A stretch of 64,000 bases of DNA from Armatimonadota bacterium. GTDB lineage: Bacteria; Armatimonadota; UBA5829; DSUL01. The notes under the pieces were generated by a model, which did no database searches, had not been told where the DNA came from, and worked only from the letters and a program-made list of their open reading frames with translations. Below are positions 18,205-26,104 of this stretch, piece after piece (the stretch's first letter is position 1; every line of letters starts with the position of its first letter). The stretch is taken from positions 544,001 through 608,000 of the forward strand of contig JBDHZC010000002.1 of NCBI GenBank assembly GCA_039811685.1, written 5' to 3'. Both the position numbers and the translations under genes were made by a program.

Positions 18205-18322
18205 AGATCTGATAAGGGCAAACTCTTCGAAAGAAGGGGACGCAAAGCCAAGGGTCTACCCCGCTCCGCCAGAGACCGTCTGGAGAATTGGAGATGGCAG
18301 GACAGCCTGGCTGCCGAGTTCC
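18205..18322 (+). ncRNA. Cyclic-di-GMP-I (GEMM) riboswitch
   Basis: AAGGGCAAAC-TCTTC-GAAA-GAAGGG-GACGCAAAGCC-AAGGGTCTA...GACAGCC-TGGCTGCCGA matches the class I consensus; G at the position equivalent to G20. Confidence 0.9.
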
Positions 18323-18442
18323 CGGCCTTGTACTTCTGGATCGCCGCAGGCGCTCCGAAGTCGCATGCGAAGAGCTTGCCTTTTCGCGTTTGTGGTGGCC
18401 GGGAGACTCCAGAGGTTCAGATGGAAGAGGGAGTATCCAGTC

Positions 18443-18739
18443 ATGAAGATCACTGAAATGGAATCGGGAAAAGCCGGCGGACCACAGCAGGACCCAGCCA
18501 GCAGCATTCTGCCGGAGGAGTTTCGCGCCAACCTCCATCAGCCCAAAGCTCGCAGGGCGAAGACATCGCGGGAAGAGGCGATTGAAGTGGCGATGAAGGC
18601 GATGGAAGAGGTTCCGGACGTTCGCGAAGACGTTGTCGCCGATCTGAAGGCCAGAATTGAAAGCGGGCAGTACAAGGTGGCCGGTGAAGACGTTGCGGAC
18701 ATGATGATCCGGCGGATGAAAGCAGACCGCATCCGCTGA
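18443..18739 (+). CDS. flgM: Anti-sigma-28 factor FlgM
   Basis: C-terminal VPDVREDVVADLKARIESGQYKV..EDVADMM; SD GAGGGAG before ATG at 18443. Confidence 0.85.
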   Translation: MKITEMESGKAGGPQQDPASSILPEEFRANLHQPKARRAKTSREEAIEVAMKAMEEVPDVREDVVADLKARIESGQYKVAGEDVADMMIRRMKADRIR

Positions 18740-22683: not shown

Positions 22684-23520
22684 CTAGTAAGGGTATTCCG
22701 GGCGGATATAGTAGTCGTTAAGAAGCCACTTATTGTACGGGTTGTCGTTCGGGTGGTAGAGCTTGTCTTTGGTGACGACCTCAGTGTGGCCGTCAGACAT
22801 CACGGTGTTCCAGGCGAAGATCGGGTACTTCATATTGTGCCACTGTGCCTGCCACGCACTCTCTCCAGGAGGGCTGGACTCACTGAACTGAAGCGCATCG
22901 TAAAACACAATCGCGCGCGATGGAAACGGAATCTGCTGAAGCTTGACAGGGCGGATGGAGCCCGCGGGCGGGCCACCTCCGTAGAGCTGATCCCAGTTCT
23001 TGATGACCAGGCTGGTGCGAAAAGCATAGCTACAGCCAACCTGACGATACGCGTTCTTGATTACCGGCGGCCATCCGGTCTGGCCCGTGTCCGGCCGCAA
23101 CCACTTATAGCCCTTGTCGGCCGGATCGCGCCATATCTCGTGGCTTTTGCTGTAGGGCATCAGGGCGTCCCAGACGTACGGGAACTGCGCCATAGCAGCC
23201 TTCGGATTGTCGTGCCGGTCTTCAGCGTCACAGGCGCGCGGGACAAATCCCTGGTGATCGTCACAATACTGAATGAATGCCAGCCCAATCTGATGCAGGT
23301 TGCTCAGACAGCCCGCCGCACGGGCGCGGTCTCGCGCGGCAGCAAAGACAGGGAAGAGAATCGCCGCCAAAATGGCGATGATGGCAATGACCACGAGAAG
23401 CTCAATCAGGGTGAAGCCTCTGCGGCCCGCCCGGCGGCGGAGTAAGCAAATACTTCGCGACGCCTCAACACCAAATTCCAGGCTTACTGCACACCTTGTC
23501 TCAACTCTGTTGCCCACCAT
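22684..23520 (-). CDS. Prepilin-type N-terminal cleavage/methylation domain protein (DUF1559-like), paralog of 866-1711
   Basis: [53 protein letters not shown] at 23520 with GAGGA SD. Confidence 0.9.
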
Positions 23521-23568
23521 TACGTCCTCGTTTATACCACTCAGCTCTGAATGCCCGATAACACCCGT

Positions 23569-23577
23569 ATTATAGCA
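23569..23577 (-). promoter_or_regulatory. Extended -10 promoter for the second prepilin-like gene
   Basis: Minus strand TGCTATAAT. Confidence 0.55.
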
Positions 23578-23646
23578 TTCGCACAGAGAAAACAAGAAGT
23601 CGTTGCAAAATTGGAGGCCGGACAGGGGGAGGGCCGCTTAGAGCGC

Positions 23647-23908
23647 AAAAAAATGGCCGCACCTTCTGTCAGATATTACCAGGAACGGCCAAGATACTAA
23701 CTCCGAGGCAGGAGTTGGGCTCTCAGGCAGAAGGAGGCGCTTTCTCAAATTGAAGGCTTTCCACCTGTCCTGGAACCAGTGCAGTCTTTCGACCGCATGC
23801 TGCGCGGGTTGGGACCGCGCAGACATCCTCATAGCTGTGCACAATCTCGTTGGCAAAGGCAGCGCTTTGATGCAGCCTGCCCGCAACGAGCGCTGGAAAC
23901 CACTGTCA
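23647..23908 (-). ncRNA. Candidate structured non-coding RNA (unassigned family)
   Basis: Lies between a TTGACA-N17-TATCCT promoter and a hairpin + U7 terminator; contains several stems and no credible long ORF. Confidence 0.5.
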
Positions 23909-23914
23909 CTCCTC

Positions 23915-23943
23915 AGGATAAGCCGCGGCCACTGTCCTGTCAA
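23915..23943 (-). promoter_or_regulatory. Sigma70-type promoter
   Basis: TTGACA (23943-23938), 17-nt spacer, TATCCT (23920-23915). Confidence 0.65.
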
Positions 23944-23994
23944 CTACCTTCAGGAAATCCTGTTAGTTGTACGGGGAAATGCCGCACACCTGGA

Positions 23995-24789
23995 CTACTG
24001 CGGTGGCGCGCTCCTTCTCAGGAACGGTTCAATGAGCTCGATAGGCAGCGGAAAGATCGTGGTGGAGTTGTTCTCCGAGGCAATCTCGCTGAGAGTCTGC
24101 AGGAAGCGAAGCTGCAACGCCGCCGGCGTTGCGCCGATAATGCTGGCTGCCTGAGACAGCTTCTCGGCGGCCTGAAACTCGCCTTCCGCATTGATAACTT
24201 TGGCGCGCCTCTCTCGCTCCGTCTCCGCCTGGCGAGCCATTGCCCTTCGCATCCCTTCGGGAAGAGCGACATCGCGCACCTCTACGGCGTTGACCTTGAT
24301 TCCCCAAGGCTCGGTTTGCTCGTCAATAACCGTCTGCAGCCGCTGGTTCACTTCGTCGCGCTCAGCGAGAATGGAGTCGAGCTCGACCTGGCCCACGATA
24401 CTGCGCAAAGTCGTCTGCGCGATCAAAGCTGTCGCGCGGGAGAAGTTCTCAACTTTGACAATGGCGTCTGCCGGGTTCAGGACTTGAAAATAGATGACCG
24501 CATCCACTGTGACTGGAACGTTATCACGCGTCATTGTCTCCTGTCTGGCAACGTCCATGGTCACAACGCGCAAGTCCACCTTGACCATCTGTTCAATGTA
24601 AGGGATGAGATAGATCAGGCCAGGGCCACGCACGCCAACCAGACGGCCAAGGCGAAACACCACGCCCCGCTCGTACTCTTTGACCACCTTAATGGCGGAG
24701 GGGATCACCAGGATAGCAATGACAATAATCACCACTACCGTGGGGCCTAGAAACTGATAAATAGCCAAAAGAAGACTTGCAAAGTCCAT
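23995..24789 (-). CDS. SPFH/stomatin (slipin) family protein
   Basis: EYERGVVFRLGR, TRDNVPVTVDAV, AQTTLRS, AETERERRAKVINAEGE. Confidence 0.95.
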   Translation of the reverse strand: MDFASLLLAIYQFLGPTVVVIIVIAILVIPSAIKVVKEYERGVVFRLGRLVGVRGPGLIYLIPYIEQMVKVDLRVVTMDVARQETMTRDNVPVTVDAVIYFQVLNPADAIVKVENFSRATALIAQTTLRSIVGQVELDSILAERDEVNQRLQTVIDEQTEPWGIKVNAVEVRDVALPEGMRRAMARQAETERERRAKVINAEGEFQAAEKLSQAASIIGATPAALQLRFLQTLSEIASENNSTTIFPLPIELIEPFLRRSAPPQ

Positions 24790-24793
24790 AGTC

Positions 24794-26104
24794 CTACTCT
24801 TTCGTAACGAACAGTCTGAGACCCTTCACGCGCACAACCCGCACCATCTGACCAGCCTCAACAGGCTCGCCGCCCTCAACCTCAGCAGTCCACCAGGAAC
24901 CTTCCAGAAACACGCGCCCGACCGGCGCCAACGGTGTTCTAGCTTCGGCAAGCAAACCAATTAGACCTTCGTGGCCCGTAGTAACCTTGCGCTTCTGCGC
25001 CCGGATTCCAGCGCCGATTGCTGTTGTAAACAGCACAGCGCTTACAATCGCTGCAGAGATGACAAAGGACAGGGACATCCGGAACATGGGTTCGTCGGTG
25101 TCAACGAGGAGAAACAGACCAAGCGCAAGGGAGATCACGCCTCCTGTTGTGAGGACTCCGTGGGTTGCGACATGGGCATCCACAGCAAAGAGGATGAACG
25201 AAAAGAAGATCAAAAGCAGCGCCGTGTAGTTCAAAGGGAGAACATTCGAGCTGAACAACACGAGAATGAGCGCCAGACCACCCGCAACTCCTGGAAAGAT
25301 GGCCCCGGGGTTGGAGACTTCGGCGATTATCCCGTACATCGCAATAAGAACGAGCACGCCCAGCACCATCGGGTTGGCCAGAAAATGGAGCAATGACTCA
25401 CGAGGATTGATTGGCAGCTCTTCAACCGGAGCGTGCTCTGTCCGCAGCGTAACGTGTTTGCCGCCCGCGACTTCAACCGAGCGTCCATCAATCTTCTGGA
25501 GGAGCTGAGTGCGATCCTTCGCAATGAGATCGATGACGTTGAGCTTCAACGCTTCCGTTTCCGTTGCGCTGATACCCTCTCGCACCGCCTTCACCGCCCA
25601 CTTCGCGTTGCGCCCGCGGCGCTCAGCCAGCGTCTCCATATAGCTCGCCATCGCGTTTGTGACTTTTCGGGGAAGGTCCTTGCCTTCTCCTGTGATCGGG
25701 GTCGCAGAACCTATGTGAGTTGTTGGCGCCATAGCGGCTATCTGAGCTGCGACGGTGATGTACGTCCCGGCGGAAGCAGCCATCGCGCCTTCTGGCGCCA
25801 CGTACACCGCTATCGGAACCGGGGAGGCCAACATAGCCTTGATGATGTCTTTTGTCGAGTCCACCAGACCGCCCGGAGTATCCAGCTCAACGAGCAGCAG
25901 TGCGTCCTTGTGTTCGGTGGCCGTGCGAATTCCCCGCAGGATATAGGCCGCAGTTGCCGGATCGATTGACCCTTCGACGCGGACAACCCGGACAATGCCG
26001 GCCGCCAGAGCGTGCGCTTGCGCGCTCACCAGCAGCACAAGCGCGAGAAGGGCAGTGCTGGCCCAGCTTTTTTCCGCTACAGGTCGTCGCATGAATGTTA
26101 TCAA
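24794..26104 (-). CDS. nfeD: NfeD membrane-bound ClpP-class serine protease (long form)
   Basis: LDTPGGL, AASAG, TM block, C-terminal OB domain; paired with stomatin. Confidence 0.93.
   Translation of the reverse strand: MITFMRRPVAEKSWASTALLALVLLVSAQAHALAAGIVRVVRVEGSIDPATAAYILRGIRTATEHKDALLLVELDTPGGLVDSTKDIIKAMLASPVPIAVYVAPEGAMAASAGTYITVAAQIAAMAPTTHIGSATPITGEGKDLPRKVTNAMASYMETLAERRGRNAKWAVKAVREGISATETEALKLNVIDLIAKDRTQLLQKIDGRSVEVAGGKHVTLRTEHAPVEELPINPRESLLHFLANPMVLGVLVLIAMYGIIAEVSNPGAIFPGVAGGLALILVLFSSNVLPLNYTALLLIFFSFILFAVDAHVATHGVLTTGGVISLALGLFLLVDTDEPMFRMSLSFVISAAIVSAVLFTTAIGAGIRAQKRKVTTGHEGLIGLLAEARTPLAPVGRVFLEGSWWTAEVEGGEPVEAGQMVRVVRVKGLRLFVTKE

Follow-up and report, generated by a model that had tools for sequence, protein, structure and literature searches.

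The window analysed here, a stretch of 64,000 nucleotides, belongs to the genome of an uncultured bacterium of the phylum Armatimonadota whose source habitat is activated sludge. Within it, a spacer of 474 nt extends on the minus strand from an SPFH/Band 7 gene, itself preceded by an NfeD gene, to a gene with prepilin-type N-methylation and DUF1559 domains (the pilin-like gene), and holds a putative non-coding RNA unit with a predicted length of about 262 nt (Table 1). The intrinsic terminator of this unit is located 127 nt ahead of the ATG of the pilin-like gene, on the same strand. The pilin-like gene also has a promoter element of its own, as the initial annotation of this DNA had proposed: the extended −10 sequence TGcTATAAT was found upstream of its start.

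Table 1. Coordinates of the RNA unit, its predicted elements and the neighbouring genes.
Feature	Position	Strand	Basis or detail
NfeD gene, ahead of the SPFH gene	24794-26104	-	Pfam
SPFH/Band 7 gene, upstream neighbour	23995..24789	-	Pfam
101-codon TTG frame over the RNA unit	23943-23638	-	open reading frame
−35 hexamer TTGACA of the RNA promoter	23938..23943	-	sequence, promoter scan
−10 hexamer TATCCT, after a 17-nt spacer	23915..23920	-	sequence, promoter scan
Predicted RNA start (predicted end in the U7 tract)	23910-23906	-	inferred
Putative non-coding RNA unit	23647..23908	-	limits predicted from the promoter and the terminator
Hairpin 1, CUCGUUG...CAACGAG, extended by GGGCAG/CUGCCU and GCU/AGC	23846..23890	-	mean pair probabilities 0.93-0.95
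Hairpin 2, (AUG)CUGCGCGG-UCCCAAC-CCGCGCAG(CAU)	23797..23826	-	mean pair probabilities 0.81-0.98
Hairpin 3, GCGGUC-GAAA-GACUGC	23781..23796	-	mean pair probability 1.00
Hairpin 4, long and imperfect, GGUUCCAGG.CAGG.GGA ... UCC.UCUG.CCUG.GAGCC	23718..23777	-	mean pair probabilities 0.76-1.00
Hairpin 5, AACUCC-UGCCUC-GGAGUU	23699..23716	-	mean pair probability 0.91
Intrinsic terminator, UGGCCGU/GCGGCCA and CCU/AGG stem, 16-nt loop, then U7 (23653-23647)	23647..23691	-	-15.9 kcal/mol
Extended −10 of the pilin-like gene, TGcTATAAT	23577-23569	-	sequence
Likely ATG of the pilin-like gene, GAGGA ahead	23520	-	sequence
Pilin-like gene (prepilin-type N-methylation and DUF1559), downstream neighbour	22684..23520	-	Pfam

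The promoter assigned to the RNA, TTGACA-N17-TATCCT on the minus strand, is present where it had been reported and matches the consensus at 10 of 12 positions, with a perfect −35 hexamer and optimal 17-nt spacing. It is the only promoter-like site that a scan of 23000-24500 returned, compared with 0.2 ± 0.5 sites in 50 shuffles of the sequence. Throughout the genome, the pattern TTGACA-N17-TANNNT occurs at 79 sites, against about 10 expected from base composition, and is 3- to 11-fold enriched over control patterns (7 occurrences for reversed words, 17 for swapped order, 17 for an N12 spacer and 27 for an N22 spacer). To judge from these counts, the genome clearly makes use of this architecture. 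A short palindrome, CAGGA-TT-TCCTG, can be seen by eye at about 23964-23953, just upstream of the −35 hexamer. A sigma-54-like GG-N11-GC element, also noticed by eye near 23620-23605, was rejected on account of its wrong spacing.

At the opposite end of the unit, the UGGCCG...CGGCCA hairpin followed by U7 that the initial annotation described is present at 23691-23647 with high pair probability, and the AU-rich stretch UAGUAUCUU precedes it. Hfq-binding small RNAs (sRNAs) carry a 3′ AU-rich stretch followed by a terminator hairpin and a U-tail. The same succession of AU-rich single strand, hairpin and long U-tail is found here, with a loop of 16 nt that is atypical. A terminator scan left this hairpin and U7 tract unflagged, the scan allowing loops of 3-8 nt only. 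The energy of the hairpin is reached by 14.5% of 400 random 50-mers and is beaten at 37% of the sites with a run of at least seven T. Such runs are mildly over-represented in the genome (130 vs. about 94 expected), and the 50 nt ahead of them fold at −14.3 kcal/mol vs. −11.7 kcal/mol for random 50-mers. Bounded by these two signals, the RNA would constitute an independent transcription unit with a predicted promoter of its own.

Coding potential, RNA families and predicted fold

The 101-codon TTG frame that runs over the RNA unit contains a 64-codon AUG sub-frame. It begins inside the −35 box of the RNA promoter, with no Shine-Dalgarno sequence found at a usable distance from its start, and its stop codon (23640-23638) is located past the U-tract, so that the terminated RNA would have no stop codon. 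The 101-aa product has no Pfam match, a search of about 5.8 billion proteins (55-177 aa) returned no homolog for it, and a wobble-tolerant probe for the frame yielded no confirmed case among 599 pattern matches in species-representative genomes or among 27 in viral contigs. The codon-position GC of the frame (0.51/0.53/0.64) is atypical when compared with the values of six real genes of the window (0.58-0.67/0.38-0.47/0.58-0.71). An origin as a pseudogene fragment was also considered and set aside, the best tblastx match against the own genome having an E-value of 0.11. By its sequence, the unit looks non-coding. It is highly improbable that the locus harbors a small protein gene, made of the 101-codon frame or its AUG sub-frame, or else produces no transcript at all: an open frame of 101 codons does exist, but the evidence on coding is negative throughout. 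The absence of a transcript is taken up below with the RNA libraries.

Searches against Rfam 15 gave no match in the RNA region at the gathering score, and relaxing the threshold up to E = 10 added a single 15-nt match at chance level, to an L31 leader (12.7 bits for a cut-off of 33.3, E = 8.3). The earlier statement that the region resembles no riboswitch, 6S RNA, SRP RNA, tmRNA or RNase P RNA is borne out by this check. Indeed, the genome encodes its 6S RNA (C4:98721-98916), SRP RNA (C9:4218-4317), RNase P RNA (C4:238335-238753) and tmRNA (C2:702184-702570) elsewhere, all above their Rfam cut-offs, and the unit was rejected as a candidate for any of the four. A protein sponge of the CsrB type was rejected as well: the 262 nt contain four GGA motifs, against 4.2 expected. 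None of them falls in a hairpin loop: predicted stems take up most or all of three, and the fourth is found at the base of hairpin 2. As far as these sequence comparisons reach, the candidate RNA is a member of no named family and is without sequence relatives.

In the predicted fold, five hairpins are followed by the terminator hairpin, the pairing of which spans 23691-23654, with mean pair probabilities of 0.76-1.00 overall. Four stems listed in the initial annotation, CUCGUUG/CAACGAG, CUGCGCGG/CCGCGCAG, GCGGUC-GAAA-GACUGC and AACUCC/GGAGUU, are recovered with mean pair probabilities of 0.81-1.00. The helix GGUUUCCA/UGGAAAGCC, which was thought to close them into one multi-stem domain, is absent from the best fold because GGUUCCAGG...CCUGAGAGCC, the arms of hairpin 4, pair with each other as a hairpin at 23777-23718 that also contains the CCUCCUUCUG stretch. 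Forcing the helix costs 12.8 kcal/mol (−91.3 vs. −104.1 kcal/mol), and the thermodynamic model does not support the closed domain as the favoured fold. The pairing of an upstream CCUUCUG with the CAGAAGG of the terminator, proposed as the basis of an alternative fold, is not favoured either: such a fold exists, brings in the GGUUUCCA/UGGAAAGCC helix and removes the terminator hairpin, but it is 10.8 kcal/mol weaker than the best fold (−93.3 vs. −104.1 kcal/mol).

The whole region folds with a z-score of −3.07, none of 200 shuffles being as good, and the 262-nt unit with a z-score of −2.78. Among random windows of 262 nt from the same genome, 3 of 103 reach a z-score of −2.78 or lower and 12 of 103 an equal minimum free energy. 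The folding energy is only moderately unusual, within about the top 3% of the random windows of this genome. That the RNA is structured is a thermodynamic prediction.

Homologs and gene order around the spacer

The RNA unit is single-copy in its own genome according to both BLASTN and a covariance model. BLASTN against the own genome retrieved the unit itself only, the next best of 19 matches having an E-value of 0.14, and the best match in 40 relatives was 25 nt long (E = 0.006). The covariance model, built from the single sequence and its predicted fold (196 nt, 61 pairs), was searched over several collections. Over 61 genomes (the own genome and 60 relatives) at E ≤ 1, it found itself and one match of 14.1 bits (E = 0.41). 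Over 151 genomes (the own genome and 150 of the phylum), it gave three matches with E-values of 0.03-0.09 per genome, as many as chance alone would give; the two of these alignments that were inspected are poor, with many non-standard pairs or deletions. Over 83 SPFH-linked loci, of which 80 are metagenome loci among the matches listed and three come from the family, it returned E-values of 0.47 and 4.8, and in five family genomes it found no match. BLASTN against phage and plasmid collections found none either.

The reach of these searches is set by the relatives at hand. The genomes searched include no other species of the same genus, the nearest SPFH protein in the relatives is 74-78% identical, and a metagenome search with the SPFH sequence gave, among the matches listed, a best locus with 79% identity; a sister species may exist unseen. 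Since no homologs of the unit were found in these collections, neither covariation nor a trace of selection can be cited in its favour. The unit appears to be private to one genus-level lineage, with nothing similar detectable in the sequences of other genera.

SPFH matches were found in three family genomes, and in each of these a long ORF comes after the SPFH gene at a distance of about 35-110 nt. In G004 and G002, the gene that follows SPFH has its ortholog in the present genome on another contig (C4), with 77-79% identity. Clear orthologs of the pilin-like gene (60-66% identity) occur in four of the five family genomes, and at the one ortholog locus that was inspected, in G002, the ortholog is separated by 85 nt from a divergent ORF of 381 aa, which by its sequence resembles an HtrA-type serine protease. 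This break in gene order relative to the relatives makes the spacer the likely product of a lineage-specific rearrangement. The leader that precedes the GFTLIELL processing motif of the pilin-like protein comprises 35 residues here (23416-23520, minus strand), compared with nine residues (MKFRAGRG-G; L130 1501-1530) in the G002 ortholog, which is 66% identical. By this comparison, the 5′ end of the pilin-like gene was seemingly remodelled together with the spacer, and the RNA gene is probably young.

Contigs from RNA libraries

Near-identical DNA is found in sequencing runs from 13 studies, mostly of sludge, bioreactor and soil metagenomes, with 72-96% of the words present in DNA runs X3-X14, and part of a 1001-nt search stretch is present in six RNA runs. 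Four of these (X15, X16, X17 and X20), all consisting of assembled contigs, were mapped onto a stretch of about 1.2 kb; such contigs carry no information on strand, true ends or abundance, cannot show absence and may stem from DNA carry-over. The sole contig of X16 is 240 nt long, has no differences from the genome and covers 23657-23896, and the sole contig of X20 (3.3 million letters in total) is 186 nt long and covers 23689-23874. The study that produced X20 also includes two DNA samples from which this genome may have come. Both contigs, which come from different studies, are placed wholly within the predicted unit with bare flanks on either side; the chance of such a placement on the 1001-nt stretch is 0.030 for X16 and 0.094 for X20. 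X15 and X17 have no contig over the RNA unit. Their contigs cover the 5′ region of the pilin-like gene (23358-23606, 23215-23403 and 23455-23605) and, in X15, part of the SPFH gene (24056-24300). None of the four runs has a contig that bridges 23607-23656, between the terminator and the leader of the pilin-like gene.

These contigs give moderate support to a discrete and sometimes abundant transcript, the strand and exact ends of which we infer from the promoter and terminator. If there were no transcript at all, the signals at the locus would have arisen by chance and the contigs from DNA carry-over, and contigs of this kind cannot prove transcription; yet carry-over would not favour the RNA unit alone in two runs, which contributes to the very low standing of this reading.

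Two contigs of the pilin-like region, from two studies (X15 record 1 and X17 record 12), stop at 23606 and 23605, about 44 nt upstream of where the extended −10 of the gene would place its transcription start. These ends could reflect another start site, a remnant of read-through or a T-run at which the assembly broke off.

The same contigs bear on the two readings in which the RNA would belong to a neighbouring gene. On the one hand, no U-tract terminator was found between the SPFH stop and the RNA promoter (23909-23997, minus strand), so the NfeD-SPFH operon may also end at the terminator of the RNA, which is the first intrinsic terminator after the SPFH stop (23995). The spacer sequence might then serve as the 3′ untranslated end of the operon, mainly ending and stabilising its mRNA, the promoter being incidental. 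This is very unlikely, as the promoter matches its consensus so closely, the unit occurs without SPFH sequence in X16 and X20, and the SPFH contig of X15 stops at 24056; moreover, the short distance from SPFH to the next gene in the relatives means that there is no conserved 3′ untranslated region. Such a role can nevertheless be compatible with an sRNA transcribed from an internal promoter.

On the other hand, the initial annotation had left a choice between a standalone sRNA and a riboswitch or attenuator, in which a conditional terminator would control read-through into the pilin-like gene. The arrangement of RNA terminator and pilin-like gene on one strand, the existence of a fold that lacks the terminator hairpin and the contigs that reach beyond the expected start of the pilin-like mRNA all speak for a cis-acting leader. 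Quite unlikely all the same, it has against it the lack of an Rfam aptamer match, the perfect extended −10 of the pilin-like gene itself, the absence of a bridging contig in the four runs and an alternative fold too unstable to compete with the best one. In addition, the G002 ortholog has only its short spacer to the divergent ORF, and the covariance model finds no counterpart of the RNA in the five family genomes. The other half of the proposal, a standalone sRNA, is the best supported: it accounts for the signals at both ends (promoter and terminator), for the missing coding signal and Rfam match, and for the contigs confined to the unit. That the locus holds a lineage-private, independently transcribed non-coding RNA gene of about 262 nt is a reading to which we give an even chance.

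Proposed mode of action and comparison with known systems

The genome encodes Hfq (96.8 bits, C1:612655-612846) and CsrA (84.4 bits, C2:676558-676713), so that both major RNA-chaperone and regulator systems would be available in this little-studied lineage. Given the presence of Hfq and the Hfq-type 3′ end of the RNA, a trans-acting base-pairing sRNA is favoured. By analogy with RNAs of this class, the most likely course would be that a near-consensus sigma-70-type promoter starts an RNA of about 262 nt (from about 23908 to 23647, minus strand), that the hairpin and U7 tract end it, that the RNA folds into the five predicted hairpins and the terminator, and that it acts in trans as a base-pairing regulator of the Hfq-associated type. 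Its Hfq dependence, its targets and any function at all are matters that we infer.

Target searches stayed close to chance. Perfect antisense matches of at least 11 nt number 660 in the genome, the longest being 17 nt; their counts are near those expected by chance, and none of them is convincingly placed at a start codon. A mild pile-up of antisense matches falls on nucleotides 4-29 of the RNA, a GC-rich and coding-like word. Unrestricted duplex energies, a crude test of targets, were equalled by 142, 77, 42 and 129 of 200 shuffles for the leader of the pilin-like gene, the SPFH start, the NfeD start and a leader at 1620-1830, respectively. The last of these (minus strand) belongs to another DUF1559 prepilin gene and contains tandem CUGCCGGAGGCAAA units that form a GGAGG-repeat; the GCCUCC and UGCCUC words of the RNA could pair with its GGAGGC cores.

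The lack of targets is one reason to consider that the RNA may be transcribed and yet functionless, a strong promoter and a terminator having come together at a rearrangement junction to produce a proto-sRNA or mere noise. The searches with no credible match in 60 relatives, 150 genomes of the phylum and 80 metagenome loci (among the matches listed), the origin of the spacer where synteny broke and fold statistics that are unexceptional for the genome point the same way. This possibility is nonetheless rather unlikely. It would require the coincidence of a perfect −35 hexamer, 17-nt spacing, a hairpin with U7 and an Hfq-type 3′ module, the RNA emerged from the assembly of two RNA libraries as a discrete unit, and near-identical DNA in 13 studies indicates that the unit is stably kept within the species. 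A more specific proposal, namely a functional riboregulator that arose de novo at the rearrangement junction, is private to the genus and is recruited by Hfq, for instance to act on the very large prepilin/DUF1559 family beside a member of which it sits, is unlikely as a whole. Less likely still is a bolder variant, in which the compact cluster of hairpins would form an RNA fold of a new kind that binds a ligand or a protein.

A full-text literature search with the terms "Armatimonadetes" and "small RNA" returned papers with neither term in their titles or abstracts. If real, the RNA would count among the earliest small RNA candidates to be reported from Armatimonadota and be a clean example of a lineage-private regulatory RNA born where gene order broke; if the de novo riboregulator were true, it would offer a datable birth of an sRNA gene in a phylum from which no sRNA is known to have been described. 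The unit opens no long-standing question and is of limited practical value, since the organism is uncultured and the RNA lacks relatives with which its structure or targets could be compared.

Among known systems, ordinary free-standing bacterial sRNAs are the group into which the RNA fits best. It shares with the Hfq-associated trans-acting sRNAs of the enterobacterial class a free-standing intergenic position, a sigma-70-type promoter, several hairpins, an AU-rich stretch, a terminator hairpin with U7, a non-coding character and a host that encodes Hfq. It differs from them in its length, at the long end of their range, in the size of its terminator loop, and in having neither a seed or target found nor a named family. 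The sRNAs of the DapZ/MicL type are located at the 3′ end of an operon and have an internal promoter. The RNA described here resembles them by directly following the SPFH stop, no terminator intervening, and by sharing the only terminator with the upstream operon, but its promoter is located in the spacer rather than within a coding region, and the RNA-library contigs show no co-transcription with SPFH. Riboswitch and attenuator leaders, of which the c-di-GMP-I-GGC riboswitch at 18208-18319 is an example, similarly combine a structured region and a terminator with a same-strand gene downstream; here, in contrast, no aptamer family is recognized, a separate promoter stands between the RNA and the gene, the RNA was neither seen upstream of the one inspected ortholog nor found in the family genomes, and the alternative fold is much weaker.

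The c-di-GMP-I-GGC riboswitch just mentioned (RF03167; plus strand; 67.2 bits for a cut-off of 59) lies in the same window, directly upstream of an ORF at 18365-18739 (+) with a FlgM anti-sigma-28 domain. This pair of elements, as annotated from sequence, would link c-di-GMP sensing to flagellar regulation in the organism.
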